Below are positions 1 through 53,785 of a DNA stretch of 53,785 nucleotides, in pieces. Under the pieces are notes generated by a model. That model ran no database searches. It was not told the origin of the DNA and was given only the letters and a program-made list of their open reading frames with translations. The DNA lies in IMG/VR virus record IMGVR_UViG_3300025646_005002, positions 1-53,785 of that record; one strand, 5' to 3'. Made by a program: the position numbers and the translations under genes. This stretch comes from a virus (taxonomy: Duplodnaviria; Caudoviricetes). Every line of letters begins with the position of its first letter. Positions within the stretch are counted from its first letter, which is position 1.

Positions 1-11
1 CAGCGTAATTT

Positions 12-260
12 ATGAAATATATATTTTTATTATTAATAGTTGCCTCTTGTGCGACAAAAGAACCGGTAGTAAATAAATCAGAACCGTCGGTTTCTGTGTT
101 TAATGGAGCGATATCAAATATGCTAGTCTGTATCTTTGCTCCACAAGAATGTAAGCAATTAAAACAAAAACAAATTGATGAAAAACCACATCAAACACAA
201 AAAGAATATGAGCAAGAAATTACTAAAGAATTAGAAGAACTTGACAAACAAGCAAAATAA
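12..260 (+). CDS. Small predicted lipoprotein
   Basis: Signal peptide with lipobox-like IVASC; the ORF is at the window edge. Confidence 0.6.
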   Translation: MKYIFLLLIVASCATKEPVVNKSEPSVSVFNGAISNMLVCIFAPQECKQLKQKQIDEKPHQTQKEYEQEITKELEELDKQAK

Positions 261-269
261 ATATATATT
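241..269 (+). promoter_or_regulatory. Sigma70-type promoter for tRNA-Ala/sufS
   Basis: TTGACA(241-246)-N17-TATATT(264-269). Confidence 0.7.
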
Positions 270-280
270 ACTTAAGAACT

Positions 281-356
281 GGGGGATTAGCTCAGCTGGG
301 AGAGCGCCTGATTTGCATTCAGGAGGTCAGCGGTTCGATCCCGCTATCCTCCACCA
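281..356 (+). tRNA. tRNA-Ala(UGC)
   Basis: Full cloverleaf: acceptor GGGGGAT/ATCCTCC with the G3-U70 Ala determinant, anticodon arm CCTGA-TTTGCAT-TCAGG, T-loop TTCGATC, encoded CCA. Confidence 0.97.
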
Positions 357-367
357 GAAAGAATTAT

Positions 368-1576
368 ATGGAACACATTAGATCACAATTTCCAATACTA
401 AACAGAAAGTTGCCTAGTGGCAACACTTTAGTATATTTAGACAGTGCTAATTCTTGTCAAAAGCCACAACGTGTTATAGATAGAATGAATAAATTTTTAA
501 CTGAAGAGTATTCCAGTGTAGGTAGAAGTATTCATGAACTATCAAATCATGCAACATCTCTTGTGGAAAACAGTAGACAAGCAGTTGCAAATTTTATTAA
601 TGCACAAGACAGAGAAGAAATTGTTTTTACTAAATCAGCCACAGAAGCCATCAATATGGTGTCAACAGCATTTGGTAGAACAATGCAACCAGGCGATGAG
701 ATTATTACTACAGAAGTTGAGCATCATTCGAATTATATACCATGGCATCTACAACGTAAGTTTAATGGTGCAGTGATAAAATTTTTAAAAGTAAATGAAC
801 AACATCAAATCAACATAGATGAGTTAGAATCATTAATTACAGATAGAACAAAAATAGTTGCTATTACTCATGTATCAAATACTACAGGACAAACAATTGA
901 TGTTAAACGTGTTTGCGAAATAGCACACAAACATGGTATTGCAGTAGCAGTAGATGGTACACAAGGTGCACCACATATAAAAGTAGATGTGCGTGACATA
1001 GACTGTGACTTCTATGCAATGAGCGGACACAAGATGTACGGACCAAGTGGAATTGGTGTGATGTATGCAAAACGCAAATGGATTGATGAATTAGATCCAG
1101 CATTGGGTGGAGGCGGAATGATAACAACTGTATCACATGATGATGTTGCTTTTGCTGAAGGTTCTAAGAAGTGGGAAGCAGGTACTTTGGCAATTACAGA
1201 AATTGTAGGGTTACATGAAGCATTAAATTTTTATGCAGACATAGGATTTGATAATATGATAGAGCATGAAGAACAAGTAATTGATTATGCATATCAAAAA
1301 ATGTCTGAGTTACTAGGTATGAAGTTTATAGGCACAGACAAACGCAGTGCAGTTATATCGTTTAATCTTGGTAATATACACCATCAAGATTTGGCTTCGT
1401 TTTTAGACACATATGGTATAGCAACCAGACCAGGACATCATTGCACACAGATGCTCCACAGACAAATAGGGTGGTCAGGCAGTTGTAGAATATCTACAGG
1501 TGTATACAGCACAAAACAAGAAATTGATTACTTTATAGACAGTTTAAAAGAAATATACAACAAGTTTAATTTGTAA
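368..1576 (+). CDS. sufS: SufS-type cysteine desulfurase
   Basis: YLDSANSCQKP, EHHSN, PLP lysine motif SGHKMYGPSGIG, catalytic RPGHHC. Confidence 0.93.
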   Translation: MEHIRSQFPILNRKLPSGNTLVYLDSANSCQKPQRVIDRMNKFLTEEYSSVGRSIHELSNHATSLVENSRQAVANFINAQDREEIVFTKSATEAINMVSTAFGRTMQPGDEIITTEVEHHSNYIPWHLQRKFNGAVIKFLKVNEQHQINIDELESLITDRTKIVAITHVSNTTGQTIDVKRVCEIAHKHGIAVAVDGTQGAPHIKVDVRDIDCDFYAMSGHKMYGPSGIGVMYAKRKWIDELDPALGGGGMITTVSHDDVAFAEGSKKWEAGTLAITEIVGLHEALNFYADIGFDNMIEHEEQVIDYAYQKMSELLGMKFIGTDKRSAVISFNLGNIHHQDLASFLDTYGIATRPGHHCTQMLHRQIGWSGSCRISTGVYSTKQEIDYFIDSLKEIYNKFNL

Positions 1577-1672
1577 AATTTCACATCTTTAATATTAAAA
1601 ACTTATATAACTTCTCTATTTTTATTTTAAATACTAATATAATTTAGTTTAACTAAAGAAGAGCAGGATCTA

Positions 1673-2128
1673 ATGATAAAAACGTTTTTATATACTATAA
1701 TTGTGACCATAGGTGTGAGCAGTTTTGCTACATCTAGTGAACTAACACAAGAGTTTTCAAACCCATCTTTTTCAGGTATTGGGCAGTCCAACCACTATCT
1801 CGCAACTGAGCAACTACAGTACACAAGAAAAAAAGAACTTGAAGATGATATTGCAAAAGCCATCAAAGATGCGGCTCGTGATGAAGAAAATCAAGTTATC
1901 AACAAATTCATTGCCAATGTGGAATCTAGAATCTACGCCAATCTATCCAAACAGTTGGTAGACAACATGTTCTCATCTGGAGGACAAACCACAGGCACTG
2001 CTGAAATTGAAGGTGCCACAATCTATTGGGAAAAAGATGTAGACCTAGGTGAAATATCAATTAGAATCACAGAAGCTGATGGTACTATAACAACACTTAC
2101 TGTGCCAATTGGAGATTTTGGATTCTAA
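1673..2128 (+). CDS. csgF: Curli assembly protein CsgF-like
   Basis: Signal peptide, then SELTQEFSNPSFSG resembling the CsgF N-terminal FxNPxFGG motif; directly upstream of csgG. Confidence 0.75.
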   Translation: MIKTFLYTIIVTIGVSSFATSSELTQEFSNPSFSGIGQSNHYLATEQLQYTRKKELEDDIAKAIKDAARDEENQVINKFIANVESRIYANLSKQLVDNMFSSGGQTTGTAEIEGATIYWEKDVDLGEISIRITEADGTITTLTVPIGDFGF

Positions 2129-2955
2129 TGATAAAAAATTTATTTTCACTTTTGTTATTGGTAATACTGGCAGGTTGTGCCTCACATGCTGGCATATCAG
2201 GTTACAAAGCACCTGTAAATTCACCTGCTCCCCTGCAACAACAGTTCAAAGCAATACCAGAACTTGATGGTCCAAAGATAACAATAGCAGTTTACAATTT
2301 CAGTGACAAAACAGGACAGCGTAAACCAAGTGAAAAATTCAGCCAACTTTCAAGTGCAGTTACACAAGGTGCAGAAGTTTGGGTAATTCAAGCACTGTCA
2401 GAAGTGGGCAACAGCACATGGTTTACAGTTGTTGAAAGAGGCGGACTAGACAATCTAGTCAAAGAACGACAATTGATTCGTTCAACCAGAGAACAGTATG
2501 AAGATGAAAAAGATAAAAAATTAAAACCTTTACTCTTTGCTGGTTTAATTGTAGAAGGTGCCGTGGTAGGCTATGATTCAAATGTGGTCACAGGCGGAAC
2601 AGGTGCACGATACCTAGGTATTGGTGCCAAAACTCAATATCGTGTTGACACAGTAACAGTGTCCATGCGTATTGTTTCAGTAAGCACAGGAGAAGTACTT
2701 CTTTCTGTTGCTACACAAAAAGACATTGCCAGTTATTCTACTGGTGCTGATGTGTTTAAGTTTTTAGACCTAGGCACTAAACTGATTGAAGTAGAAGCAG
2801 GAACGGCAGTTAATGAACCAGTAAATTATGCAGTAAGAGCCGCAATAGAGCAGGCGGTCTGCGATATAGTTGAACTTGGCAACACAAACGGACTTTGGAG
2901 ATATAAAGCACACGTTGTTGATCCACAACTCAACTACAGAGAGGGAAGTAAATGA
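2128..2955 (+). CDS. csgG: Curli secretion channel lipoprotein CsgG
   Basis: Lipobox LAGC; AVYNFSDKTGQRK, SAVTQGA, WFTVVERGGLDNLVKERQLIR, GGTGARYLGIG, NEPVNYAVRAAIE are typical CsgG motifs. Confidence 0.93.
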   Translation: MIKNLFSLLLLVILAGCASHAGISGYKAPVNSPAPLQQQFKAIPELDGPKITIAVYNFSDKTGQRKPSEKFSQLSSAVTQGAEVWVIQALSEVGNSTWFTVVERGGLDNLVKERQLIRSTREQYEDEKDKKLKPLLFAGLIVEGAVVGYDSNVVTGGTGARYLGIGAKTQYRVDTVTVSMRIVSVSTGEVLLSVATQKDIASYSTGADVFKFLDLGTKLIEVEAGTAVNEPVNYAVRAAIEQAVCDIVELGNTNGLWRYKAHVVDPQLNYREGSK

Positions 2956-3659
2956 AAAGATTAATTTTGATATTATTATTAATGTCTGGATTACCATTAA
3001 TGGCAAATGATATTTACATTGATCAAATAGGTGACAGTTTAGATTTAGATATCACACAGGATGGCCAGGATAACCAAATTGGTAATTCTACAACTGATGC
3101 TACACTAAATGGTGACAACATGACATTTTCAATCACACAAACAGGTAGTACAAACACAATTGAAGCCATTATCAAAGGTGACACATATACAGGTACATGG
3201 ACATTCACAGGCAGTTCAAACACTGTGGATTTAGACTGTTCCAGTGCCGCCGCAGGCAATTGTGACACAGTAACACTTAATATTACCAATACAGGTGATT
3301 CAAATGACTACACATTTGCTATTGGTGAAACATCAGATGCTACAAGTTCAACAGTGGCATTTACAGTCACAGGTGACAACAGTATTATTAATACTACTGT
3401 AGATGGACAAAGTGCCGCACTAACAGTTGACATCAACAACAGTACATCACTAGCAACCACAAGTGCAAATTCAGATGAAGGTGTTGCATTAACAACTTCA
3501 CAGAGTGGTGATGGCGACAGTGCTGGACACACTGTTACACTAGATGTAGATGGTGGCGGTGGAACAATTGACATCACACAGAGTGGTATCTACGACAACA
3601 CAGTTGACCTAACAGTAAATGGCGATAGTTTTGATGTAGATATAACACAAAGTGACTAG
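2952..3659 (+). CDS. Curlin-like (CsgA/CsgB-type) repeat protein
   Basis: Signal peptide; acidic T/S/D/N/G-rich repeats of the form IxQxGxxN (IDQIGDS, ITQDGQDN, ITQTGSTN, ITQSGIYDN). Confidence 0.72.
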   Translation: MKRLILILLLMSGLPLMANDIYIDQIGDSLDLDITQDGQDNQIGNSTTDATLNGDNMTFSITQTGSTNTIEAIIKGDTYTGTWTFTGSSNTVDLDCSSAAAGNCDTVTLNITNTGDSNDYTFAIGETSDATSSTVAFTVTGDNSIINTTVDGQSAALTVDINNSTSLATTSANSDEGVALTTSQSGDGDSAGHTVTLDVDGGGGTIDITQSGIYDNTVDLTVNGDSFDVDITQSD

Positions 3660-3661
3660 TT

Positions 3662-4756
3662 GTGAGATTTATTCTATTAATAATTTTACTTTTAATTTCA
3701 TGGTCAGCACAGGCCAATATTGGTGCAGTTAGTGAACTACAAGGTCAAGGTCAGATCAAACGTACCAATGGTGACAAAGTTGATCTTGAACAAAGCCTTG
3801 ATGTTTTTTCCTATGATGAAGTAATGACAGGACAAGGCAGAACTGCCATTAATTTTATTGACGACACCAGAGTAGAAGTCACAGAACATTCTAAATTAAT
3901 TATAGACGAATTTGTGTATGATCCTGCCAACAATCAAGGTGGACTAACACTCACAGCCGCATTGGGCACAGTAAGATACGCATCAGGACAAATAGCCAAA
4001 GACTACAAAGACAATGTCAAAATCAAAACACCCACAGCAACAATTGGTGTGCGTGGCACAGACTTTGCCATGATTGTGGACGAGTTGGGCGGATCAACAA
4101 TTATTTTATTGCCTTCATGTAATTCAAATGGCAACTGTGTGGTAGGTGAAATCACAGTAGATTCAGACATGGGACAGGTCATACTAAATCAAGCATTTCA
4201 AGCCACTAGAGTTGAAGTAGCAGAACGCAGACCCACTCCCACAGTGTTGCTAGAAATGGACGAATCATTTATTGGTAATTTACTCATAATATCACCACCA
4301 AGAGAAATTGACGAAGCAGAAGATCAACAATCTGTTCAAGTTATGGCAGACATATTGGGTTTGGATTTTTTAGAAATTGATGTGCTGGACCAAGACCTAC
4401 TAGCACAAGATGAACAGCAGTGGCAAACAGAACTAGACATTGATTTTTTAGCAGGTGACTTTTTAGGTGATGTACTAGCACAATTAAACAAAATATTAGC
4501 GGCAGAATTTTTAAGTGAACTAACTGATGTGTTTGTAAAGAAAGAACAAAAGATAGGACAGTTGGAAGGAAATATAATACTGTTGGATCAAGGTGCTAGT
4601 TGGTTTTTTAGACGTGAAGGATCATCTAGTGTGGTACAGTTAAAACTAAACAAAAATTATGGATACACACTTGATCTACAACAAGATGATTTTACCACAA
4701 GAGATTTTATTATAGGAGAAGGTGCTGGTAACAATATCAACATCATACAGAAATAA
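3662..4756 (+). CDS. Secreted FecR-domain protein
   Basis: GTG start, signal peptide, FecR-like core (D.V.TG.GR..I.F.DDT.V.V.E.S.L.I and IKTPTATIGVRGTDF), acidic C-terminal half. Confidence 0.8.
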   Translation: MRFILLIILLLISWSAQANIGAVSELQGQGQIKRTNGDKVDLEQSLDVFSYDEVMTGQGRTAINFIDDTRVEVTEHSKLIIDEFVYDPANNQGGLTLTAALGTVRYASGQIAKDYKDNVKIKTPTATIGVRGTDFAMIVDELGGSTIILLPSCNSNGNCVVGEITVDSDMGQVILNQAFQATRVEVAERRPTPTVLLEMDESFIGNLLIISPPREIDEAEDQQSVQVMADILGLDFLEIDVLDQDLLAQDEQQWQTELDIDFLAGDFLGDVLAQLNKILAAEFLSELTDVFVKKEQKIGQLEGNIILLDQGASWFFRREGSSSVVQLKLNKNYGYTLDLQQDDFTTRDFIIGEGAGNNINIIQK

Positions 4757-5571
4757 TGTTTGAAAAACTAATCACAAGAATTTGTATAGCACTGTATATT
4801 TTTATGGTGTTAATATATATATTTGTACCAGAAGCAAGAGCTAACTCAATCTACATTGATCAAGTGGGCACAGGCAACAACGATACTGCGATAAACATCA
4901 ATCAAGAAGGTGAAGATAATACTGTAAATTATTCAGAAGGCGGCACAGGCAACACAATCACAATTGATCAAAAAGGCGATGACGCTTATGTTGGATATAC
5001 CACACAATGGGGTAGTGGTGCAGTATGGGGTGGCGATTTAGATGGCAATGATAATAATATAAACATCAAACAGTACTGTAATCAAACATTTTGTGGTGGT
5101 GATAGATTTGAATTTCATATTCAAGGGGATAGAAACGACATTGACTTTTATCAAGGTTATAGAGTGTACAGTGATGGATCACTTGACACAGTTGATGACT
5201 ATGAGTATGGCGGCCATTCTGTGATATTAGATATTCATGGATCAGATAACAAGTTCTTAGGGAGTCAAAGATCAAATAACTCAGGACACGAACACTCAAA
5301 CACAACCTACATATATGGCAATGACAATGATGTATTTGCTGTACAATGGGGGGATCAAGACAAGACAATAAACCTAACAATTTATAATAATAACAATGAT
5401 GTAGATATTATACAAAGAGATTCGTCAAGTCATAGTGCTACAATAACACTTAATGGTTCGTATGGTACAGATTTAGATTTAACACAAAAAGGCTCAACAG
5501 CACAATCATACAGTTTATCTCAAAACTGTCAAACTGCGGGTGGTTGTAGTGTGTCAGTAACCCAAGAATAA
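4756..5571 (+). CDS. Second curlin-like repeat protein
   Basis: Hydrophobic N-terminus; repeats IDQVGTGNN, INQEGEDN, IDQKGDD, LTQKGST; C-terminal CxxxxxC. Confidence 0.7.
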   Translation: MFEKLITRICIALYIFMVLIYIFVPEARANSIYIDQVGTGNNDTAININQEGEDNTVNYSEGGTGNTITIDQKGDDAYVGYTTQWGSGAVWGGDLDGNDNNINIKQYCNQTFCGGDRFEFHIQGDRNDIDFYQGYRVYSDGSLDTVDDYEYGGHSVILDIHGSDNKFLGSQRSNNSGHEHSNTTYIYGNDNDVFAVQWGDQDKTINLTIYNNNNDVDIIQRDSSSHSATITLNGSYGTDLDLTQKGSTAQSYSLSQNCQTAGGCSVSVTQE

Positions 5572-5578
5572 AACACCA

Positions 5579-5586
5579 TATAAATA
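5579..5586 (+). promoter_or_regulatory. T4-late-like promoter
   Basis: TATAAATA 5 nt before the ATG at 5592. Confidence 0.65.
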
Positions 5587-5591
5587 TCATT

Positions 5592-7634
5592 ATGAAATGG
5601 TTAACACATTGGACTGTAGCATTTTTAACACTTGCAGTTTTGATGCTGTGGGGATTTAGTGATCCTTTTGTAAAGCAGACTGCTAGGTTAAAAACATTTG
5701 ATCTAATTCAAAAATATGACACACCAACTGTCAGCAATGATATTGTGATAGTTGAATTAGATGAAAAATCAATTGAACAATACGGACAATGGCCTTGGAA
5801 GCGAACAGTATTAGCAGATATCATATGGAAGTTGCGTGAAGCAGGTGCAGGCATAATTGTATTGCCAGTTTTATTTTCAGAACAAGATAGACTAAATGGT
5901 GATATGGATCTAGCACAGGCGTTGGTTGAAAATGGTGTTGTGATAGCACAGGTAGGTACAACACAAACAAACAAAAATGCAGTGCCACGTGGTGTTGCCA
6001 AAATAGGTGATCCACTGTCTTGGTTGTTTGAATGGCCAGGCATGTTAGGACCTATAGAACTGTTTGGATTAAATGCAGACGGTGTAGGTGTAATCAATAC
6101 AGCACCAGAAATTGATGGTGTGGTAAGACGTGTGCCTTTGATTGTTACAGTTGAAGGAGAAACATATCCTGCCATAGCCATTGAAACAATACGTGTGGCC
6201 ACAGGTGCACCAAGTTATCAAGTCAAAGCAGGTCCAGGTGGTGTACAAGCAGTTCGTGTTCCTGGGTATCCTGTGATTAACACAGATGCTAACGGACAGA
6301 TATGGTTGCGTTGGAACAAACAGTTTGAAACAATAAGTGTCACAGACAGTTTTGAATCTGTGCAAGGCAAAACAGTTATTCTTGGTATCACAGCAGAAGG
6401 TATAGGATCAATCATAGCAACACCTAATGGTGAAGCATATAGTCATATACCAATAGCAGTGAGTTTACAAACAATTATCAATGGTGATTCTATAGTGCGA
6501 ACAGACTATGCAACTTTTTTAGAGTATGCAGTAACAGGAGCAGTTGCAGTGCTATTAATTTTGTTGGCGGCATTTGCACCATATTGGTTAACAGGTGCGG
6601 CAATGATTTTATTATGGTCAGGTTCAAGTTATGCTTCGTACTTTGTGTTTACAAGACATCTACAGTTATGGGATGTGAGTTGGTTAATAACTGTGTCAAC
6701 ATTGGTTTCATTCCATGCAGTGTTTAATAGATTTACCAAAGAATATTTTGAAAAACAAAAAATTAAAAAACAGTTTGCAGGTTACTGTTCTCCAACAGTT
6801 GTACGTATGCTACAAGAGAATCCAAGTTTAATTAAAGATGGTATGAAGAAAGAAGTTTCAATTTGTTTCTCAGACCTAAGAGGATTTACACCATTAGGAG
6901 AATCGTTTGGCGACGATGTTAAAGGCTTAACAAAATTAATGAATGGGTACATGGATGCCATTACACAACCTATACTTGATGCTGACGGTATGGTTATTAA
7001 GTATATCGGTGATGCAAGTATGCATATACATAATGCTCCTATAGATGACCCGCATCATCCAAGAACAGCAGTAGAAACAGGACTCAATATGTTACGTGCA
7101 GTAGAACAGTTTAATGAAAAGATTACATCAGAAGGAAGGCCACCAATTGGCATGGGTGCTGGTATCAACACAGGATTGGGTTATCTTGGTGAAATGGGAA
7201 GTACAAGCCGTCATTCCTATGACGTCCTTGGCGACGCTGTTTCGACTGCCGCCCGAATAGAAAGCAAGTGTAAAGAGTACGGTTGTTTATTGCTTGTGGG
7301 CGAGAACACCTACGATGCTACTAAAGACAACTTCTTTTACTTAAAAATAGACGAACTTGCTGTTAAAGGTAAGAGTGTTGGTATTAGAATTTACACAGTA
7401 TTAGATAATATTAAGAAAGTTGATCATAAGAGCAAAAAGGTACATGACCAAATGCATGAAGCATATAAGTCACAAAAGTTTGATGAAGCCATTTATCACT
7501 GTGAAAGATTAAAATCACACTTTGGTGGTAAGATGAAAGGCTATTATGATATGTGGATTGAACGCTGTGAGTATATGCAAACACAACAGTTACCTAAAGA
7601 TTGGAACGGTGTGTTTATTGCAACCACAAAATAA
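5592..7634 (+). CDS. CHASE2-domain class III adenylate cyclase
   Basis: CHASE2 motifs (IVIVELDEKS...GQWPWKR, DGVVRRVPL), three TM helices, cyclase motifs FSDLRGFT, IKYIGDA, YDVLGDAVSTAARIES, and VKGK. Confidence 0.92.
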   Translation: MKWLTHWTVAFLTLAVLMLWGFSDPFVKQTARLKTFDLIQKYDTPTVSNDIVIVELDEKSIEQYGQWPWKRTVLADIIWKLREAGAGIIVLPVLFSEQDRLNGDMDLAQALVENGVVIAQVGTTQTNKNAVPRGVAKIGDPLSWLFEWPGMLGPIELFGLNADGVGVINTAPEIDGVVRRVPLIVTVEGETYPAIAIETIRVATGAPSYQVKAGPGGVQAVRVPGYPVINTDANGQIWLRWNKQFETISVTDSFESVQGKTVILGITAEGIGSIIATPNGEAYSHIPIAVSLQTIINGDSIVRTDYATFLEYAVTGAVAVLLILLAAFAPYWLTGAAMILLWSGSSYASYFVFTRHLQLWDVSWLITVSTLVSFHAVFNRFTKEYFEKQKIKKQFAGYCSPTVVRMLQENPSLIKDGMKKEVSICFSDLRGFTPLGESFGDDVKGLTKLMNGYMDAITQPILDADGMVIKYIGDASMHIHNAPIDDPHHPRTAVETGLNMLRAVEQFNEKITSEGRPPIGMGAGINTGLGYLGEMGSTSRHSYDVLGDAVSTAARIESKCKEYGCLLLVGENTYDATKDNFFYLKIDELAVKGKSVGIRIYTVLDNIKKVDHKSKKVHDQMHEAYKSQKFDEAIYHCERLKSHFGGKMKGYYDMWIERCEYMQTQQLPKDWNGVFIATTK

Positions 7635-7654
7635 TTCACATAAATAGTTATATC

Positions 7655-23203: not shown

Positions 23204-24307
23204 ATGAAAGTTTGGTTAATAGATTTAGAATCAGTAGAAACAAGATATACTTGTCAGTGGAAAACACATGTTCCAGAGCTACTACAATCACACAACATAG
23301 AAGTTGAAGTAATAGAAGGTGCAGATGATATTCCACCTGCTACAACACCTGGTGCATTTTTAAACTTTGGTGGTACTAATATCTATAAGTCAACACAGAT
23401 AGAAAAAATTTCAAGAGCATTTACAGAAGGTAGAGTATCACAGGGTGATCACATATTGTTTACTGATGCTTGGCATCCTGGTATTATCAACATCAAATAC
23501 ATGAGTGAACTACTTGGTATTAAAGTTATCACACATGGATTATGGCATGCGGGTTCATATGATCCAGCAGATTTCTTAGGTAGATTAATTGGTAAAGCAC
23601 CATGGGTAAGACATGCAGAAAGATCAATGTTTGAATCATTTGATCACAATTATTTTGCATCAGATTTTCATATTAGATTATTTGGTAGATCACACAAGGT
23701 TGGTCCAGTAGGTAATAAAATTGTAAGAACAGGTTGGCCTATGGAATACATGAAAGATACTCTTAAAAAATATTCAGGTATTGGAAAAAGAAACCTAATA
23801 CTATTTCCACATAGAATTGCTCCAGAAAAGCAACCAGAGATATTTAGAGATCTAGCACAGAGTTTACCAGAATATCAATTTGTTGTTTGTCAAGACAAAC
23901 AGTTAAACAAAGATGAATATCATTCACTGCTTGGTCAAGCAAAAATGGTATTTTCAGCAAACACACAAGAAACACTAGGTATATCACCTTATGAAGGAGT
24001 ACTAGTTGGTGCAATGCCTTTGGTACCAGATAGATTAAGTTATACAGAAATGTATGATGATGTATGGAAATATGATTCAGCATGGACCAGTTCATACTCA
24101 AATTATCAATTAAACAAACATAAACTTATCCAAATAATAAAAAATGATATGGAGAACTACGCAAATAAATTGCCAAAACTACAACAATTAGAGCAAAAAT
24201 TAACTGACATGTATTTCTCTGCAAACAATCTGTTAAATACTATTAGTAGTTATGGCAAAAAAGAAACCAATCAAAAAGAAATTAAACAGACAACGATATC
24301 AGTTTGA
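23204..24307 (+). CDS. GT-B glycosyltransferase
   Basis: FPHRIAPEKQPE and QETLGISPYEG...VPDRLSYTEM (GT4-like EX7E); promoter TTGACT(23169)-N17-TATAAT. Confidence 0.8.
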   Translation: MKVWLIDLESVETRYTCQWKTHVPELLQSHNIEVEVIEGADDIPPATTPGAFLNFGGTNIYKSTQIEKISRAFTEGRVSQGDHILFTDAWHPGIINIKYMSELLGIKVITHGLWHAGSYDPADFLGRLIGKAPWVRHAERSMFESFDHNYFASDFHIRLFGRSHKVGPVGNKIVRTGWPMEYMKDTLKKYSGIGKRNLILFPHRIAPEKQPEIFRDLAQSLPEYQFVVCQDKQLNKDEYHSLLGQAKMVFSANTQETLGISPYEGVLVGAMPLVPDRLSYTEMYDDVWKYDSAWTSSYSNYQLNKHKLIQIIKNDMENYANKLPKLQQLEQKLTDMYFSANNLLNTISSYGKKETNQKEIKQTTISV

Positions 24308-24662: not shown

Positions 24663-25337
24663 ATGAGTAAAAGTGAAGAAATAAAACAAAGATTAAAAGA
24701 TGCTGGTGTGCGTTTTCATTCTAATGACAACATCAGTGAATACATCAAAGAAGGTGAACTAGCTCAACTTCAAGATGAAATACAAGAAAAAATGCAAGGC
24801 GTATTAGATAGCCTTGTAATTGATACAGAAAATGATCACAACACACGTGAAACAGCAAAACGTGTAGCCAAGATGTACGTGAATGAAATTTTTGGTGGTA
24901 GATTTAAAGCACCTCCAAGAGTTACTAGTTTTCCAAACATGGGATACAAAAGCATGTACACCAGTGGACCAATTTCAATAAGATCAACCTGTGCTCATCA
25001 CTTTCAAAATATCGTAGGACAATGTTGGATAGGTATTATTCCTAATGGCGAAGTTATTGGACTATCTAAGTTTAATAGAATAGTTCATCACATTGTAGAA
25101 CGTCCTCAGATACAAGAAGAAATGACATCACAAATTGCAACTGAACTAAAAAAATATGCAAAAACAGAACACATTGCAGTTGTTGTGAAAGCAGAACATC
25201 ATTGTATGACACACAGAGGTGTGCGTGAACATGAAAGTGATATGACCACAGCAATCATGAATGGAGCATTCAGCGATGATCCTGCAACTAGAGATGAATT
25301 TTATAAGATTTGCATGAGCATGAAAGGTCATGGTTAA
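24663..25337 (+). CDS. folE: GTP cyclohydrolase I
   Basis: ETAKRVAKMY, STCAHHF, IGLSKFNR, RPQIQEEMT, AEHHCMTHRGV. Confidence 0.95.
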   Translation: MSKSEEIKQRLKDAGVRFHSNDNISEYIKEGELAQLQDEIQEKMQGVLDSLVIDTENDHNTRETAKRVAKMYVNEIFGGRFKAPPRVTSFPNMGYKSMYTSGPISIRSTCAHHFQNIVGQCWIGIIPNGEVIGLSKFNRIVHHIVERPQIQEEMTSQIATELKKYAKTEHIAVVVKAEHHCMTHRGVREHESDMTTAIMNGAFSDDPATRDEFYKICMSMKGHG

Positions 25338-27245: not shown

Positions 27246-28142
27246 ATGGAAGAAAAGAAATATTATTATTCAGAGATATTCCACAGTATTCAAGGTGAAG
27301 GACACTACACAGGTGTGCCCACTGCTTGGATACGTTTCTTCTTGTGCAATTTGCAGTGTAATGGATTTGGACAAATAGATCCAACTAATCCAGAAACATA
27401 TGAATTGCCATTTGAAGATTTTGACGTATCATCAGTTTCAAGAGTAGAGGATTTGCCTGTGTGGGACAAGGGTTGCGACTCTTCCTACACCTGGGCAAAG
27501 AAATTTAAAAGTTTAATGGGTTATGAAACACCCACAACACTTGCAAATAAAATAGTTGATGCTATTAAAACAGATTCAAATCCACAAGGACTATTTTTAC
27601 ATCCTGGATCAAAACAGCATCAACATCTGTGTTTCACAGGCGGTGAACCTTTGATGGCACAGGCACAGGTTGCAGTTGTAGGCATCTACAATGAACTGCA
27701 AAAGCAAAACAATTTACCTGGATCAATGACATTTGAAACCAACGGCACACAAAGTCTAAGACCACAGTTTGTAGAATGGGCAAAGTCAATTGACACAGAA
27801 ATATTCTTTAGTTGTAGTCCTAAACTGTTTACAGTGTCAGGTGAAAAAACAGAAAAAGCAATTCGTCCTGATGTAGTACAAGAGTACTATCAACTTTCCA
27901 ACAAAGGTCAACTTAAATTTGTGGTTGGTGAAGCAGATAGAGAATGGGATGAAATGGAACAGGCAGTAGAAAAGTTTAGATCAGCAGGTGTTGATTGGCC
28001 TGTGTGGATTATGCCTGTGGGTGCTAGAGAAGAAGAACAATCAGCAGGTGCTGGCAAAGTAGCACAAAAGGCATTTAAGAAAGGATATAATGTTGCGGCA
28101 AGAGTTCATGTATATTTGTTTGGCAACGCAATAGGAACATGA
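27246..28142 (+). CDS. queE: 7-carboxy-7-deazaguanine synthase (radical SAM)
   Basis: SEIFHSIQGEG, CNLQC...CDS with an insertion, FTGGEP, ETNGT, SPKL, RVHVYL; promoter TTGACA(27211)-N16-TATAGT. Confidence 0.88.
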   Translation: MEEKKYYYSEIFHSIQGEGHYTGVPTAWIRFFLCNLQCNGFGQIDPTNPETYELPFEDFDVSSVSRVEDLPVWDKGCDSSYTWAKKFKSLMGYETPTTLANKIVDAIKTDSNPQGLFLHPGSKQHQHLCFTGGEPLMAQAQVAVVGIYNELQKQNNLPGSMTFETNGTQSLRPQFVEWAKSIDTEIFFSCSPKLFTVSGEKTEKAIRPDVVQEYYQLSNKGQLKFVVGEADREWDEMEQAVEKFRSAGVDWPVWIMPVGAREEEQSAGAGKVAQKAFKKGYNVAARVHVYLFGNAIGT

Positions 28143-28455: not shown

Positions 28456-28895
28456 TCAAAGATTTTTTTCGTGGTAGAAAAAGAATTATCTACAATAGAG
28501 ATAACACACGAGAATATCTTGTGAGATATTATTTGATGTTAAAAGATAGAAAAGATTTTCCGTTTAATATTACACTGCATAAAATTATGATGAGTGACGA
28601 ACCAATACTACATAGTCATCCTTGGAATTGGGGTGCAGTTATACTTAAAGGTGGATATTGGGAACATACACCTGAAGGTAAACATTGGAGAGGTCCTGGA
28701 CACATAAGATTTAGAAAAGCAGAAGATCTACACTACTTGGAACTAGCCAAAGATGCAGATGGTAAAGAAATACCATGCTGGAGCGTATTTTACATGGGCA
28801 AAAAATCAGATACATGGGGATTTTTAGTTGACGGTAAAATCATAGAGCATGAAGAATTTCTCAATAACAGAAGCAAATATCCAACAAATGGATAA
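28446..28895 (+). CDS. Cupin-fold protein
   Basis: LHKI...LHSHPW...ILKGGYWEH...DLHYLEL fits the cupin HxH...E...H pattern. Confidence 0.6.
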   Translation: MDVIKDFFRGRKRIIYNRDNTREYLVRYYLMLKDRKDFPFNITLHKIMMSDEPILHSHPWNWGAVILKGGYWEHTPEGKHWRGPGHIRFRKAEDLHYLELAKDADGKEIPCWSVFYMGKKSDTWGFLVDGKIIEHEEFLNNRSKYPTNG

Positions 28896-29241
28896 GCAAA
28901 AATTAAAATTCATTCAACAAAATATAAGTCGTGCTAAAAATAGAGGAAAAAAATCTTGGCCAAATGAAATTACTAAATTTGATGTTTACAGTATAGGAGA
29001 AAACCAAAATTGGAAGTGTGCTATAACTGGAGATGAATTAGAATTTATAAGAGGTGGTACAACATGGCAAAACAAATGGTGTAATCCACAATCATGTACA
29101 ATAGATAGGATAGATCCAACCAAAGGATACACAGTGGATAATATTCAACTCTTGACACACAAAGCCAATACTTGGAAAAGCTCATTTACACACGAAGAAT
29201 TGCAAGATTTAAGTGAAAAATTCCTTCAAAAGATCACTTGA
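28888..29241 (+). CDS. HNH-like endonuclease
   Basis: KCAITG...TIDRIDPTKGYTVDNIQLLTHKANTWK (beta-beta-alpha-metal pattern). Confidence 0.65.
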   Translation: MDKQKLKFIQQNISRAKNRGKKSWPNEITKFDVYSIGENQNWKCAITGDELEFIRGGTTWQNKWCNPQSCTIDRIDPTKGYTVDNIQLLTHKANTWKSSFTHEELQDLSEKFLQKIT

Positions 29242-34251: not shown

Positions 34252-34461
34252 ATGATTAAAAATTTTAAAGATATAGTGATACTGTTGATAACAGGTGGTG
34301 TGTTAACACTGCTTGGTGTTATCATTATAGGTGACTATGTTGTAGCACTGGAAGAAAACAGACCAGTTGATGAAAGTGTTATCACACTGATGAAGATGTC
34401 AGTCACAGGATTGATTGGAGTCATTGGTGGATACATAGGCGGCAGCGGAAACAGAAATTAA
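34252..34461 (+). CDS. Small 2-TM protein (holin candidate)
   Basis: Two hydrophobic helices; AAGGAG RBS. Confidence 0.65.
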   Translation: MIKNFKDIVILLITGGVLTLLGVIIIGDYVVALEENRPVDESVITLMKMSVTGLIGVIGGYIGGSGNRN

Positions 34462-35134: not shown

Positions 35135-35915
35135 GTTTATAGTAGATGAGTTTGATAAAGACTCAGCATTATTCTTTGCTAAATTAAGTGGTGCGGCATA
35201 TTACACACCGAAAGCGTTTATACATTTTTTAAGAAAAGAAAATATTGTTGATAGTTATCATTATCAATTTATAGACAAAAACAGCAGTCAAGCATACGTA
35301 CTTTGGGATGATGAAAATTTTATCATTGCATTTAGAGGTACACAGCCAAGTGAAATGAAAGATGTATTTGCAGACATGAAATTTTGGAAAAAACCAGCAT
35401 GGGAAGGCGGTAAAGTACACACAGGTTTTGCTACCTATGTTGATGAAATTTGGGATGACATCAAACAGTTGTTTTTTAAACACGGTGTAAGACCAAACGG
35501 TAAAACCAAAAGAGTTTACACCACAGGACACTCACTAGGAGCCGCGGCGGCAACCATAGCGGCATCACGTTTAGGCACATTTGCTAGAGGCTGTTTTACA
35601 TATGGATCACCAAGAGCAGGCAACAAAAAATTTACACAAACAATTAAATGTCCAGTGTGGAGATTTAGAAATCAAAGAGATTTAGTCACACGAGTACCAC
35701 TAGCACTCATGGGATTTAAACATGTGGGCAAATTTTGTTATATTGATGGTGATCATAATCTAAGAATTGGTGCAGTTAAATTTGTTAGACTGTTCAAAGA
35801 TGCTGTTGCAAGTGTTTTTAATAAAGTAGTAGCAGATGGATTTGTAGATCATAGTATGAGTGACTATATTAAATACATTAATGAATGTGACACAGTTCAC
35901 AAAAAGGAAAAATAA
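35118..35915 (+). CDS. Class 3 lipase (alpha/beta hydrolase)
   Basis: IAFRGT, VHTGF, TGHSLGAA, TYGSPRAG, DLVTRVP, DHSM. Confidence 0.9.
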   Translation: MSGPRKFIVDEFDKDSALFFAKLSGAAYYTPKAFIHFLRKENIVDSYHYQFIDKNSSQAYVLWDDENFIIAFRGTQPSEMKDVFADMKFWKKPAWEGGKVHTGFATYVDEIWDDIKQLFFKHGVRPNGKTKRVYTTGHSLGAAAATIAASRLGTFARGCFTYGSPRAGNKKFTQTIKCPVWRFRNQRDLVTRVPLALMGFKHVGKFCYIDGDHNLRIGAVKFVRLFKDAVASVFNKVVADGFVDHSMSDYIKYINECDTVHKKEK

Positions 35916-41416: not shown

Positions 41417-42445
41417 ATGAAAAATAGAATAGCAGTTATAGGTAATGGTAAAATAGGTAAAGTAATTGCCAGTCTGTTAAGATCAGAATATTATAATGTT
41501 GTAATAGGTGATGCAGTACAAGAAAATGGAGTAGTATCACTAGATGCTACAAATGAAACACAACTAGAACATTTTTTAAAAGACAAGCATGTTGTTTGTT
41601 CAGCGGCTCCTTATTATCTAAATAAAAAAATTGCAAATGTAGCCGCACGTAATGGTGTAGCCTATTTTGATTTAACAGAAGATGTTGAAGTAACTGACTA
41701 TATTAAAAATTTAAACACAAAAACTTTTATGATGCCACAGTGTGGATTGGCACCTGGAGCAGTAAACATTATTGGTAGTAATTTAATTAAAGAGTTTGAC
41801 GAAGCATATGATGTTCAAATGAGAGTAGGTGCATTGCCAAGGTACCCGTCTAATGAAATGAGTTACTATTTAACTTGGTCAACAAACGGATTAATAAATG
41901 AATACTGTAATTTATGTGATGTAATTGTTGATGGAGAAAAGTTAAAGATACCACCATTAGATGGAGTTGAAACAATATACATTGATGGTAGAAGATATGA
42001 AGCATTTAATACATCAGGTGGTGTAGCAACAATGTGTGAAACATTTAAAGATAAAGTAAGGTCTTTGAGTTATAAAACAATTAGATATCCAGGGCATAGA
42101 GATAAAATAAATTTTTTATTTCAAGATCTAAACTTAAAAAATAACAAAGATAAAATAGGAGACTTGTTTGATCAAACAGTTCCATATACTACAGAAGATG
42201 TAGTAGTAATGTTAATCAAAGTTATTGGTAAGAAAAATGGAAAACTATTAGAAAAATCTTATCAAAAAAATATCTTTGGAAAAGATGGAATGAGTGCAAT
42301 TCAGAGGTCGACAGCATCTGGAGTTTGTGCTAATATAGTATCATACTGTAGAGATGAACTTACAGGTGAAGGTTTTGTCAAACAAGAAGATGTTGATTGG
42401 CAAACTTTTATTAGCAACAAATTTGGCCAGGTGTATGTTGAATGA
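41417..42445 (+). CDS. Saccharopine dehydrogenase-like NAD(P) oxidoreductase
   Basis: IGNGKIG, YFDLTED, CGLAPG, TWSTNGLINEY, EAFNTSGG, YKTIRYPGH. Confidence 0.85.
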   Translation: MKNRIAVIGNGKIGKVIASLLRSEYYNVVIGDAVQENGVVSLDATNETQLEHFLKDKHVVCSAAPYYLNKKIANVAARNGVAYFDLTEDVEVTDYIKNLNTKTFMMPQCGLAPGAVNIIGSNLIKEFDEAYDVQMRVGALPRYPSNEMSYYLTWSTNGLINEYCNLCDVIVDGEKLKIPPLDGVETIYIDGRRYEAFNTSGGVATMCETFKDKVRSLSYKTIRYPGHRDKINFLFQDLNLKNNKDKIGDLFDQTVPYTTEDVVVMLIKVIGKKNGKLLEKSYQKNIFGKDGMSAIQRSTASGVCANIVSYCRDELTGEGFVKQEDVDWQTFISNKFGQVYVE

Positions 42446-45156
42446 GTTACGTAGACGCATATTTAAATAGAGATAGAGATCAAATAAACATTGTAGAACG
42501 TGTAGATGGTAAACGTGTCTACAAAACATTTCCAACTACATATAGATTTTATTATGAAGATAAAGATGGTGATTATACATCTATCTATGATAGACCTTTA
42601 AGTAAATTTGAAACTACTAACAGTAAATCTTTTCAAAAAGAAAAGAAACTGTATGAAGGGCAAAGACTATACGAAGCAGATCTTAATCCTGTGTTTAGAT
42701 GTTTAGAAGAAAACTATCTTGACAAAGAAGCCCCAGATTTACATATAGCACTGTTTGATATTGAAGTAGATTTTGATAAAAATCGCGGGTTTGCAAAGCC
42801 AGATGATCCACATCAACGTATTACTGCAATAACACTACATCTAAGTTGGCTTGACAGTTTGATTACACTGTGTCTTGCTCCAAAGGACATGCCATTTGAA
42901 ATGGCAGATTCAATTGCTAAAAAATTTGATAACACAGTATTGTGTGAAACAGAAGCACAACTGTTGAACACGTTTTTGCATTTGATTGAAGATGCTGACA
43001 TATTGAGTGGTTGGAACTCAGAAGGTTTTGATATTCCATATATTGTAAACAGAACTGAAATGGTGCTGAGCAAAGATGATGTTAGACGTTTTAGTTTGTG
43101 GGATCTATACCCACGTGAAAGAATGTTTACAAAGTTTGGTAACGAACAGCAAACATATGATTTTTTTGGTCGTGTGCATTTGGACTATTTAGAACTGTAT
43201 AGAAAATACACATATCATGAAATGCACTCATACAGACTTGATGCAATTGGTGAATATGAAATTGGTGAGAAAAAGATTCCGTATGAAGGCACACTTGACC
43301 AATTGTATAATGAAGATTTTGAGAAGTTTATTGCTTATAACAGACAAGACGTAGCACTGTTGGCAAAACTTGATGATAAACTAAAATTTATTGATCTAGC
43401 AAATGTGTTGGCACATGCAAACACTGTGCTACTACAAACCACAATGGGTGCAGTTGCAGTTACAGAGCAGGCAATTGTAAATGAAGCACACAAACGTGGA
43501 TTTATTATTCCAAATAGACCATATAGAGAACCACACTCATCAGGTGCGGCGGTTGGTGCTTATGTGGCAACGCCTAAAAAAGGATTGCATGATTGGATTG
43601 CATCAATTGACATTAACTCACTGTATCCTAGTGTAATCAGATGTTTGAACATGGGTCCTGAAACTATCGTTGGACAATTAAGACCAACACACACAGAAAA
43701 ATACATCAACAATAAAATTCACAAAGAAAAGAAATCAGCCGCAGATGCTTGGGAAGGAATGTTTGGTACTGTTGAATACACAGCAGTGATGGAACAGGAT
43801 CGTGGCACAGAAATTATTGTAGACTTTGAAGATGGCACTACAGAATCTATGAGTGGTGCAGAAGCATACGCAGTTATATTTCAACAAAATCAAGGTTGGT
43901 GTTTGAGTGCTAATGGTACTATATTTGATACAACTACAAAAGCAGTTATTCCTGGATTGCTAGAACGTTGGTTTGCTGAAAGAAAAGTACTGCAAGACAA
44001 AATGCGTGAAGCAATTGCAAGTGGAGACAAAGCACAGGTAGAGTTTTGGGATAAACGACAACTTGTTAAAAAGATTAATTTGAATAGTTTGTATGGTGCT
44101 ATCCTAAATCCTGGTTGTAGATTTTTTGATCAACGCATAGGACAAAGTGTTACACTAACAGGTAGAACAATTACCAAGCATATGGCATCAATAACAAATC
44201 AAATAATGACAGGTGAATATGATCATCAAGGTGAAGCAATTATATATGGTGACACTGACTCTGTTTATTTCTCAGCATATCCAATGGTCAAAGAAGATGT
44301 TAAAAGTGGAGCATTACCTTGGACTAAAGAAAGTGTAGTTGAGTTGTATGACAGTGTAGCAGAAGAAGTAAACAAGTCGTTTCCAAGTTTCATGCAGAAA
44401 GCAACCAATGTGCCACGTGCAAATGGTGAGATCATTAAAGGTGGCAGAGAAATGGTTGCATCCAAAGGATTGTTTATCACAAAGAAAAGATATGCGGCAT
44501 TGATATATGATCTAGAAGGCAATAGACAAGACATTGACAAGCCTGGTAAACTAAAAGCAATGGGTCTTGATTTAAAAAGATCAGATACTCCTGATTTTGT
44601 GCAAGACTTTTTATCAGAAATACTAATACAAATTTTAACAGGTGTGGACAAAAAAGAAATACTTGGAGCAATACAAGAATTCAAACGTAAATTTGCAGAC
44701 AGACCAGGTTGGGAAAAAGGCACTCCAAAACGTGTGAACAACTTGACCAAATATGTGCAGGATATTGAAAAATACAAGCGAGCAACATCACGTATGGCCA
44801 ATGGTGGTGCTAATGGCAAGATCAAAAAGCCAGTGATGCCTGGACACGTAAGAGCAAGTATCAATTGGAACACAATGCGTGATGCTTATAAGGATTTGTA
44901 TTCACTGCCTATTATGGATGGACAAAAAGTTATTGTGTGTAAACTAAAAGCAAATCCAATGAACTTTACATCTATTGCATATCCAATTGATGAATTGAAT
45001 ATTCCAAAATGGTTTAAACAATTACCATTTGATCATGATGGTATGGAACAAACAATTATTGATCAAAAGGTCAGTAACCTAATGAGTGAACTTGGTTGGG
45101 ATCTAGAATCAACAAAAACATCAACAGTATTTGAAAGTTTATTTGAAACAACATGA
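42442..45156 (+). CDS. Family B DNA polymerase
   Basis: Exo DIEVD, GWNSEGFDIPY, YNRQD; Pol DINSLYPS, KINLNSLYG, YGDTDS, KKRY. Confidence 0.97.
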   Translation: MSYVDAYLNRDRDQINIVERVDGKRVYKTFPTTYRFYYEDKDGDYTSIYDRPLSKFETTNSKSFQKEKKLYEGQRLYEADLNPVFRCLEENYLDKEAPDLHIALFDIEVDFDKNRGFAKPDDPHQRITAITLHLSWLDSLITLCLAPKDMPFEMADSIAKKFDNTVLCETEAQLLNTFLHLIEDADILSGWNSEGFDIPYIVNRTEMVLSKDDVRRFSLWDLYPRERMFTKFGNEQQTYDFFGRVHLDYLELYRKYTYHEMHSYRLDAIGEYEIGEKKIPYEGTLDQLYNEDFEKFIAYNRQDVALLAKLDDKLKFIDLANVLAHANTVLLQTTMGAVAVTEQAIVNEAHKRGFIIPNRPYREPHSSGAAVGAYVATPKKGLHDWIASIDINSLYPSVIRCLNMGPETIVGQLRPTHTEKYINNKIHKEKKSAADAWEGMFGTVEYTAVMEQDRGTEIIVDFEDGTTESMSGAEAYAVIFQQNQGWCLSANGTIFDTTTKAVIPGLLERWFAERKVLQDKMREAIASGDKAQVEFWDKRQLVKKINLNSLYGAILNPGCRFFDQRIGQSVTLTGRTITKHMASITNQIMTGEYDHQGEAIIYGDTDSVYFSAYPMVKEDVKSGALPWTKESVVELYDSVAEEVNKSFPSFMQKATNVPRANGEIIKGGREMVASKGLFITKKRYAALIYDLEGNRQDIDKPGKLKAMGLDLKRSDTPDFVQDFLSEILIQILTGVDKKEILGAIQEFKRKFADRPGWEKGTPKRVNNLTKYVQDIEKYKRATSRMANGGANGKIKKPVMPGHVRASINWNTMRDAYKDLYSLPIMDGQKVIVCKLKANPMNFTSIAYPIDELNIPKWFKQLPFDHDGMEQTIIDQKVSNLMSELGWDLESTKTSTVFESLFETT

Positions 45157-47947: not shown

Positions 47948-47952
47948 AATAG

Positions 47953-52151: not shown

Positions 52152-52164
52152 ACTAGGAGGAAAT

Positions 52165-53232: not shown

Positions 53233-53282
53233 CAAAATAATATAGAAATCTATATATAATCACTTAATATAGGCCTCTTTAG

Positions 53283-53290
53283 CATAAATA
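53283..53290 (+). promoter_or_regulatory. T4-late-like promoter
   Basis: CATAAATA followed by a 5' leader stem. Confidence 0.6.
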
Positions 53291-53367
53291 AAAGTGTAAT
53301 GATTACGATATGAACATATGGGTCATGTTGTAGTTTAATAAATTTTATTGTATAGGAGAAACATACA

Positions 53368-53625
53368 ATGGCAGGATTCGGTCCAACTTCAGGTAAAGGT
53401 ACAGCAGGTGCTGGTAACGGTTTAGGTCCAAAAACTTATATCTGTTCAATCGCAACTGGTACTATCACAGTAGAAGCGGCAATTACAGCCTTAACATCAG
53501 GCGATAACCACTTTACAATTGCGGCAGTTGAAGGTACAGGTAACGGCGATCATTTAGCAGTTCAAGGTACAGCAACATTCCCAACAATTGGTGGTGTAAC
53601 ATTAGTTGCAACTTTTAACGACTAA
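53368..53625 (+). CDS. Small G/T/A-rich late protein, possibly virion-associated
   Basis: Own late-like promoter, AGGAG RBS and terminator; composition typical of structural proteins. Confidence 0.7.
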   Translation: MAGFGPTSGKGTAGAGNGLGPKTYICSIATGTITVEAAITALTSGDNHFTIAAVEGTGNGDHLAVQGTATFPTIGGVTLVATFND

Positions 53626-53644
53626 TATTAATTTTTAAATATAC

Positions 53645-53674
53645 AAAAGGGCGGCTTTATGTCGCCCTTTTTTT
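53645..53674 (+). terminator. Rho-independent terminator
   Basis: AAAAGGGCGGC-TTTAT-GTCGCCC followed by a T7 run. Confidence 0.9.
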
Positions 53675-53701
53675 ATGGCTGATTTTTCTCAAAAAATAGT
53701 G

Positions 53702-53709
53702 TATAAATA
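53702..53709 (+). promoter_or_regulatory. T4-late-like promoter
   Basis: TATAAATA 5 nt before the riboswitch P1. Confidence 0.65.
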
Positions 53710-53714
53710 TTGTA

Positions 53715-53760
53715 CGTTCATCCTATCAAGGACGGAAGTAGCATAATGCGAAGGAACGCA
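53715..53760 (+). ncRNA. Glutamine riboswitch (glnA motif)
   Basis: P1 CGTTC/GAACG, P2 TCCT/AGGA, junction CGGAAGTA, P3 GCA/TGC, GAAG; a three-way junction with E-loop as in glnA RNAs. Confidence 0.82.
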
Positions 53761-53785
53761 CCTAACTTTAACCAAAGGAGGGTGA

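Follow-up and report, generated by a model that had tools for sequence, protein, structure and literature searches.

The stretch of DNA described here comprises positions 1 to 53,785 of IMG/VR record IMGVR_UViG_3300025646_005002, i.e., the entire record, and is referred to below as "the window". The CheckV estimate of its completeness is 16%, and it represents about one sixth of the genome of a T4-like jumbo phage that belongs to a large marine clade. All but one of its 83 called genes lie on the + strand, and among them are replication genes for a family B DNA polymerase, a clamp loader and a flap nuclease, together with genes for Clp, DnaJ, a peptide deformylase, FolE, a QueE-like protein, a curli-cyclase cassette and TctA, as well as two tRNAs. 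The polymerase (PolB; 42442..45156, + strand), which was recognized by profile and sequence searches and has served us as the marker for collecting and placing relatives, is 52% identical to its counterpart in Sinorhizobium phage Phosso, 46% to that of Agrobacterium phage Atu_ph07 and ~43% to those of the Rak2/121Q group; no near-identical cultured phage was found for the part of the window that was used as a query. The subject of this report is the near-total absence from this DNA of one short palindromic word, GCWGC (W being A or T), and what that absence suggests about the defences that such phages meet.

Avoidance of GCWGC in the window

The exact counts for the window (1..53785, both strands considered) are one GCAGC and no GCTGC, as compared to 41 GCGGC and 20 GCCGC. 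Under a maximal-order Markov model 48.9 GCWGC sites would be expected, and under synonymous-codon shuffling of the 83 called genes 51.3; in 300 such shuffles GCAGC never fell below 28 and GCTGC never below 5. When the 501 strand-symmetric 5-mers tested were ranked under a codon-aware model, GCWGC was the most depleted of them (ratio 0.02, z -13.1). The sole surviving site is a GCAGC at 34442..34446 (+ strand), which is read off-frame (GGC AGC), is preceded by a G (gGCAGC) and lies near the end of an open reading frame (ORF) of 69 amino acids at 34252-34461. The sister word GCSGC (S being C or G) is over-used, with 61 sites observed vs 41.9 expected.

The avoidance takes the form of a recoding of alanine pairs. 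In all 54 of the Ala-Ala pairs encoded by the window the first codon is either GCG (35 pairs) or GCC (19 pairs), whereas ahead of any other residue the alanine codons are predominantly GCA (640) and GCT (220), with GCC (90) and GCG (30) in the minority. Typical instances are the GCC GCC GCA at 3246..3254 and the GCC GCG GCG GCA at 35541..35552, both on the + strand. A purge of Ala-Ala at the level of the proteins was considered and rejected, because the pairs number 54 as compared to 66.4 +/- 8.2 expected; since Ala-Ala is not depleted in the proteins of the window, the recoding is purely synonymous. The host-like accessory genes have no GCWGC (25.6 expected) and the remaining genes have one (25.6 expected). 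A preliminary description of this DNA, made by eye, had proposed that GCWGC is avoided almost absolutely and in core and accessory genes alike, that the lone GCAGC lies at 34442, that GCA and GCT prevail in single Ala codons and give way to GCC or GCG at Ala-Ala, and that GCSGC is tolerated under long and strong selection on the DNA; the exact counts bear it out on each of these points, the relatives described below are concordant, and the positions that it singled out (3246, 11074, 35541, 34587 and 34442) are all correct.

Selection on DNA and not on codon pairs

Since ~87% of the GCWGC sites expected in the window fall in the Ala-Ala frame, the window by itself speaks weakly to whether the DNA word or the codon pair is under selection: its off-frame sites number one vs about 6 to 6.6 expected (P about 0.02), which is weak when taken alone. 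More sites could be brought to bear through relatives. When IMG/VR was scanned for the DNA polymerase of the window, 540 relatives were confirmed, and the analysis retained the best 80 loci. Once duplicates and loci with an expectation below 8 sites had been removed, 24 avoiders and 26 non-avoiders were left for a pooled comparison, in which some loci span homologous regions and are therefore not independent of one another. One relative, designated G001, is a complete genome of 328,149 bp with terminal repeats, and its PolB is 86% identical to that of the window.

In G001 there is not a single GCWGC, as compared to 261 expected from the Markov model or 286 from codon shuffling, and its Ala-Ala pairs are recoded without exception (320/320), minus-strand genes (72) included. 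Off-frame sites are missing (0 vs 14.2 expected), as are those of the non-coding DNA (0 vs 7-10 expected in 21.8 kb). The pooled loci behave similarly. The 24 dereplicated avoiders have 28 GCWGC sites vs 357.7 expected and the 26 other loci 463 vs 493.6; for off-frame sites alone the corresponding figures are 7 vs 55.5 and 133 vs 120.1, and the non-coding DNA holds 2 sites in 36.5 kb of the avoiders as compared to 34 in 28.6 kb of the non-avoiders. Both GCAGC and GCTGC are missing despite the placement of nearly all genes of the window on one strand. The loss of off-frame and non-coding sites from G001 and from the pooled avoiders implies that selection has acted on double-stranded DNA and not on codon pairs. 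The preliminary description had left room for a bias confined to in-frame Ala-Ala, and no such confinement exists in G001 or in the 24 avoiders. GCWGC is thus a word that has been removed from both strands by synonymous recoding.

Distribution among marine relatives and pelagiphages

In a FastTree phylogeny of 66 distinct polymerases (local support values only, midpoint root), the 64 marine sequences group together. Avoidance of GCWGC is present in most of the marine subclades, and its absence is limited to one clade of 19 entries with 38-40% G+C, to locus L049 and to the pair L025/L028; the tree requires at least four changes of avoidance state. The nine closest relatives of the window (L001-L009; 67-93% PolB identity) have no GCWGC at all, as compared to ~140 sites expected. 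The cultured relatives keep the word, with 104 vs 117 expected in Sinorhizobium phage Phosso and 93 vs 84 in Vibrio phage 2.275.O. A more distant relative of 322 kb (G003; L209-L225, also L208) occupies an intermediate position, with 130 sites vs 349 expected, and ~111 of these 130 are GCAGCT/AGCTGC. G003 is also alone among the phage records searched in encoding an N4/N6 DNA methyltransferase (PF01555), possibly an AGCT-type methylase that covers the overlapping sites.

The same footprint occurs in phages of another kind altogether. Two cultured podophages of SAR11 bacteria, both T7-like and ~40 kb in size, are depleted of GCWGC: HTVC019P (L105) has 13 sites vs 49 expected, begins 46 of its 58 Ala-Ala pairs with GCG or GCC and keeps GCSGC (47 vs 38.6), and HTVC011P (L104, whole genome) has 3 GCWGC vs 41 expected, has no GCSGC and shows a purge of Ala-Ala at the protein level (2 pairs vs 55.2 expected). 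These podophages are unrelated to the jumbo phages, and the footprint is therefore convergent. Together, the changes of state in the polymerase tree, the SAR11 podophages and the site-bearing cultured relatives indicate that phage ancestry alone does not account for the trait, which goes with host range. The other two of the four original pelagiphages, HTVC010P and HTVC008M, neither recode Ala-Ala in this way nor purge it from their proteins. The word GCGC is depleted in all four.

Further purged words and the contexts in which sites survive

GCWGC is not the only word that has been purged from these genomes. In the window AGCT (30 vs 106 expected), GCGC (8 vs 31) and TCGA (10 vs 26) are also depleted, and in G001 the list comprises CASTG (24 vs 244), RCATGY (0 vs 166), GCTAGC (1 vs 17.5) and GCGC (39 vs 128), with AGCT retained. 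We take AGCT, GCGC, RCATGY and CASTG to be palindromes of the AluI, HhaI, NspI and TspRI types, respectively. Varied restriction-modification (R-M) systems among the hosts would be expected to leave just such a picture, with a common core word and palindromes that change from one relative to the next.

The sites that do survive are not a random sample. We have defined a flank as a G at position -1 or a C at position +1 of the word. In the window, AGCT without such a flank occurs 5 times vs 111.8 expected, all nine unflanked combinations being depleted, and with a flank 25 times vs 41.6; in G001, unflanked GCGC is absent (0 vs 115.1) and flanked GCGC is found 39 times vs 52.2. The CASTG survivors of G001 are of the form YCASTGR in 17 of 22 coding sites, and the occurrence of CASTGGT among survivors indicates that GGT-type contexts also seem protective. 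In the relatives, flanked sites make up 107/180 of the surviving AGCT as against 145/424 (Fisher P 1e-8) and 43/58 of the surviving GCGC as against 144/327 (Fisher P 3e-5). For GCWGC itself, 21 of the 28 survivors in the 24 avoiders are flanked (12 of them as GGCWGCC), as compared to 159/463 in the non-avoiders (Fisher P 2.6e-5). None of the thirteen GCWGC sites that survive in podophage HTVC019P shows such a flank. Survivors of three or four different words thus obey one rule, namely that the site contains or adjoins a G whose next base is a purine. Because this one rule extends over words that are presumably cut by different enzymes, a property of the phage DNA is a simpler explanation than flank preferences shared by unrelated nucleases.

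Deazaguanine genes and a possible guanine shield

The rule for survivors suggests, from base sequence, that the phage behaves as if its DNA bore a context-specific shield on guanines, and a portion of the window encodes proteins that are relevant to such a possibility. FolE (GTP cyclohydrolase I; 24663..25337, + strand; PF01227, E 2.6e-47) catalyses the first step of 7-deazaguanine synthesis, and downstream of it lies the gene for a QueE-like radical SAM protein (27246..28142, + strand; phrog_2076, E 4.9e-54), which is distant from bacterial QueE and matches the TIGR QueE models weakly, below their cut-offs. Between the two is a gene for a purine phosphoribosyltransferase-like protein (26287..26772, + strand). 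A PHROG scan of G001 detected a QueD-like protein and an NAD-synthetase-like PP-loop protein, and a search for QueC returned only weak matches, all to the latter.

A core gene directly upstream of FolE encodes a protein of 367 residues (23204..24307, + strand) that is highly conserved and is glycosyltransferase-like by automatic names only. It has at least 8000 homologues at E<=1e-5, with identities of 63-87% among the matches listed (120); sequence and profile searches matched it to nothing in Pfam, NCBIfam, PHROG or PDB, and none of the searches run identified it as a TGT/DpdA protein. A small HNH/endonuclease VII-like protein (28849..29241, + strand; PHROG scan) is encoded nearby; no other gene close to the deazaguanine genes is nuclease-like, and nothing ties this one to GCWGC.

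In the phage CAjan, preQ0 is placed at GA and GGC, and enzymes with only GC, GT or GGT in their sites still cut the DNA (PMC7544227); in the phage iggy a 7-deazaguanine modification occurs at GA (PMC10484667). The DNA of the window resembles CAjan in that the sites that resist there contain GA or GGC and those that are vulnerable contain GC or GT, and the purged words here survive beside such steps. This phage clade resembles the 7-deazaguanine systems also in having FolE, QueD-like and QueE-like genes. It differs from CAjan in that no DpdA was found, that GGT contexts seem protective, that TCGA and GGATCC are depleted despite their GA, and that its putative shield is deduced from sequence statistics. 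DpdA is described as the signature of 7-deazaguanine DNA modification (PMC10516641). Its absence from our searches leaves the 7-deazaguanine chemistry of this phage unproven, and the phage is accordingly not assigned to that system; the preliminary description, which had assumed a deazaguanine modification, is thus upheld as to the genes and not as to the modification.

Methylation is not the means by which G001 is protected, since neither 5-methylcytosine (m5C; PF00145) nor N4/N6 (PF01555) DNA methyltransferases were found in it. No PF00145 methyltransferase was detected in any of the 10 phage records searched.

Clues to the host

The probable host is a marine alphaproteobacterium with a streamlined genome, and SAR11 is the leading candidate. 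G001 encodes a permuted transfer-messenger RNA (tmRNA) of alphaproteobacterial type (RF01849, 131.6 bits; L085 14937-15270; ARAGORN tag ADENLALAA), for which BLAST found 25 matches among 401 alphaproteobacterial genomes, 17 of them in genomes no larger than 1.7 Mb. The best match was to a genome of 1.3 Mb and 27.6% G+C, and this was the sole one of five tested that has a SAM-V riboswitch, an element that we take to be typical of Pelagibacter. G001 also has 18 tRNA gene calls; tRNA-Ala(UGC) is called at either end of the record and probably belongs to the terminal repeat.

A further clue is the curli-cyclase cassette of the window (1673..7634, + strand), in which genes for CsgF, CsgG, curlin, a FecR-like protein, a protein of unknown function and a CHASE2 adenylate/guanylate cyclase follow one another in the same order as gp014-gp019 of Pelagibacter phage HTVC008M (L101 7562-13807), with identities of 59% for CsgG and 46% for the cyclase. 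The cassette has no GCWGC in the window and has 8 in its HTVC008M copy. Apart from this cassette of the same order, HTVC008M, a myophage, belongs to another type of T4-like phage. In the 401 alphaproteobacterial genomes CsgG had 21 matches, the best at 50% identity and hence below the 59% identity to HTVC008M. No close bacterial donor was found by way of a cysteine-desulfurase-like protein, whose best matches were at most 52% identical and mostly from Alphaproteobacteria.

A candidate for the kind of R-M system that could underlie the avoidance occurs in one of these 401 genomes (G147; 1.2 Mb, 31% G+C), where a Bsp6I-family endonuclease gene adjoins one for a divergent m5C methyltransferase, beside gyrB (L226, contig 32). 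The target of M.Bsp6I is GCNGC (PMC2790894), and a 79-kb sample of G147 DNA is depleted of both GCWGC (20 vs 63.5 expected) and GCSGC (17 vs 46). The same genome has five m5C methyltransferase matches, and GATC (67 vs 219) and GGCC (44 vs 89) are likewise under-represented in it.

Restriction-site avoidance and its alternatives

Avoidance of restriction sites by phages has long been known. Staphylococcal phage K, which reportedly lacks GATC, is one of the classical cases. Complete or near-complete elimination of sites occurs in about one tenth of viral genomes by the account of Rusinov et al. 2018 (PMC6286503). The window resembles such avoidance by virulent dsDNA phages in several respects: a Type II-style palindrome has been nearly lost from both strands, the loss is synonymous and is set in a lytic T4-like gene complement, and several palindromes have been lost together. 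It is unlike the known cases in that the loss has been kept across a clade to 67% PolB identity, that the survival of the other words depends on their flanks, and that a cognate enzyme can at present only be postulated. We found no literature on GCWGC avoidance in phages, these marine jumbo phages and pelagiphages included; neither GCWGC as an avoided word nor the marine jumbo clade as a case of it was found in print.

Among known enzymes, BbvI recognizes GCAGC. TseI and ApeKI recognize GCWGC (PMC3643589 and PMC8557920). The site of these three enzymes equals the word purged from the window, and GCSGC is spared; they come from thermophiles and Bacillus, and no marine host was found to have a homologue, although no search aimed at one was made. 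The Bsp6I/Fnu4HI type, with GCNGC as its target, has its likeness in the G147 pair (an m5C methyltransferase and an endonuclease in GCNGC-depleted DNA) and in the GCNGC-poor podophage HTVC011P, and is unlike the window, which tolerates and over-uses GCSGC.

Classical restriction-site avoidance is the most likely cause of the loss of GCWGC, and the explanation that we favour as probable is avoidance of a host nuclease that cuts GCWGC or GCNGC, combined with a second layer of protection by a mark on guanines. A Type II-like nuclease with a GCWGC (TseI/ApeKI/BbvI-like) or GCNGC (Fnu4HI/Bsp6I-like) specificity would be common in the host population and would kill any phage genome bearing an unprotected site, and the clade would have responded by erasing GCWGC synonymously, chiefly by writing Ala-Ala as GCG/GCC-GCN. 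The second layer would reside in the DNA of the phage itself, as a context-specific mark on guanines whose next base is a purine (GA, GG), and sites that contain or abut a GA or GG step would be shielded by it. In words like GCWGC, AGCT, GCGC and RCATGY every guanine precedes C or T, and such words would be unprotectable on both strands and hence purged. The preliminary description had offered as one of two possibilities a host nuclease that is not blocked by a deazaguanine modification; with the modification replaced by a putative mark, this is the better supported of the two, in view of the footprint shared by SAR11 podophages and of a flank rule that fits the contexts modified in CAjan. A more specific form of this explanation, in which the mark on purine-followed guanines is DpdA-independent and shields most words, the unshieldable words are erased, and the agent is an m5C-type GCWGC/GCNGC system pervasive in SAR11-like bacteria, may be correct, and we regard it as rather less likely true than false.

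A number of observations weigh against the favoured explanation. As to the agent, none of the candidate hosts yielded an enzyme specific for GCWGC; the Bsp6I-type pair is confined to G147, which is without a SAM-V match and may not be SAR11; and in three small low-G+C alphaproteobacterial genomes (60 kb of each) GCWGC is not depleted, with observed-to-expected ratios of 0.94-1.14. Two of the four cultured SAR11 phages keep the word, namely HTVC008M (102 vs 101.6 expected in its first 100 kb) and HTVC010P (57 vs 66). The preliminary description had also suggested a look for GCWGC methylation in candidate hosts, and here m5C is poorly visible to single-molecule real-time (SMRT) sequencing. The SMRT methylomes, as far as covered by the excerpts of PMC8919816, PMC6329791 and PMC9516812, report GCWGC methylation only in Chloroflexi and for SAR11 only GANTC/GAWTC. 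As to the shield, a DpdA was not found: Pfam TGT had no match in the six frames of G000, G001, G003, G004 and G005, and no TGT/DpdA was named among the 116 ORFs of the window or among the 384 of 423 ORFs of G001 scanned against PHROGs, searches that very distant DpdA3/4-like forms could escape. TCGA and GGATCC contain GA and are depleted nonetheless. A one-sided flank fails to rescue GCWGC (0 vs 49.1 in G001, 1 vs 11.1 in the window), and flanks on both sides are expected only 2.7 and 1.1 times, respectively; the survivors in G003, being mostly GCAGCT, are also unlike the flank rule. Finally, a complete lack of sites across relatives to 67% PolB identity is stricter than most reported avoidance, and a factor intrinsic to the phage could likewise account for it.

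Of the alternatives, the one that survives best is a variant nested within the favoured explanation, in which the agent is specifically a GCNGC cutter of the Fnu4HI/Bsp6I type and GCSGC is spared only because the GGC on one of its strands bears the guanine mark. The Bsp6I-family pair of G147 and the joint depletion of GCWGC and GCSGC in that genome speak for it, as do the near absence of GCNGC and of Ala-Ala from HTVC011P, the rescue of GCGC by GGC contexts under the flank rule, and the modification of GGC in CAjan (PMC7544227). It is hard to reconcile with HTVC019P, which purges GCWGC, keeps GCSGC and recodes Ala-Ala in the same manner, and which has no deazaguanine genes named in the annotation of its record; moreover, a GGC flank on one side does not rescue GCWGC in G001, and GCSGC would be covered on one side only. 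We consider this variant unlikely, with some standing left to it.

The other possibility raised by the preliminary description, a phage-encoded nuclease or toxic modifier that acts on GCWGC in the DNA of the host or of competitors, so that the phage's own genome must be free of sites, is in our view improbable. It would account for an avoidance that is absolute (0 of 261-286 in G001) and has been held over deep divergence, like a constraint met in every infection; genomes of the candidate host type are rich in the site (about 0.8-1.2 per kb), and about half of the G001 ORFs are without annotation. Set against this, the scan of 384 of the 423 ORFs of G001 named no restriction-enzyme-like gene, the DNA methyltransferases sought in G001 were likewise not found, and the nuclease-type genes that were seen in the phage are of the HNH, EndoVII-like, DenV, SbcCD and exonuclease types only. 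The Bsp6I family (PF09504) has no match in five phage records, the T7-like podophages HTVC011P and HTVC019P share the footprint, and the other purged words vary between close relatives, which fits changing host enzymes better.

That the bias is an effect of translation (codon pairs or tRNA at Ala-Ala), as the in-frame position of ~87% of the expected sites and the phage's own tRNA-Ala(UGC) might suggest, or an artefact of sequencing, library or assembly, is ruled out for practical purposes, the former by the absence of off-frame and non-coding sites and the like recoding of minus-strand genes in G001, the latter by the agreement of contigs from many independent records and the retention of sites in sister clades from the same collection scan.

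Other features of the window and of G001

The two tRNAs of the window are a tRNA-Ala(UGC) at 281-356 and a tRNA-Gly(GCC) at 8223-8297. A segment of 69 bases at the former (279-347) is 88% identical to a phage record from human faeces, and most likely the match is to the tRNA itself. Two small adjoining ORFs, 7601-7933 and 7933-8172, are paralogues that belong to phrog_18771, a family of unknown function. In G001 (L084-L096), eighteen ORFs match radical-SAM PHROGs (phrog_14086, 21308, 1802 and 13987), with the QueE-like gene excluded from that number, and constitute an unusually large paralogous set.

Implications for marine jumbo phages and their hosts

An avoidance that is total over a genome of 328 kb and conserved in a very abundant uncultured clade can be regarded as a "fossil record" of the defences that these phages have met. 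It predicts that a GCWGC- or GCNGC-cutting system, probably protected by m5C, is common in the host population, for which SAR11 is the leading candidate and where such a system is unreported, and it further predicts a guanine mark at the GA and GG steps of the phage DNA. Since HTVC011P and HTVC019P are in culture and carry the same signature, the prediction concerning the host system can be tested in the laboratory. Shared purged words are also predicted to group phages and hence to allow shared hosts to be inferred. If erasure of unshieldable words beneath a DpdA-independent guanine mark should prove to be the true state of affairs, then the missing words and the flanks of the survivors would together read out a modification motif from sequence alone, a restriction system of SAR11-like bacteria would have been missed by the published SMRT methylomes, and the host of an abundant group of giant phages of the ocean would have been named.

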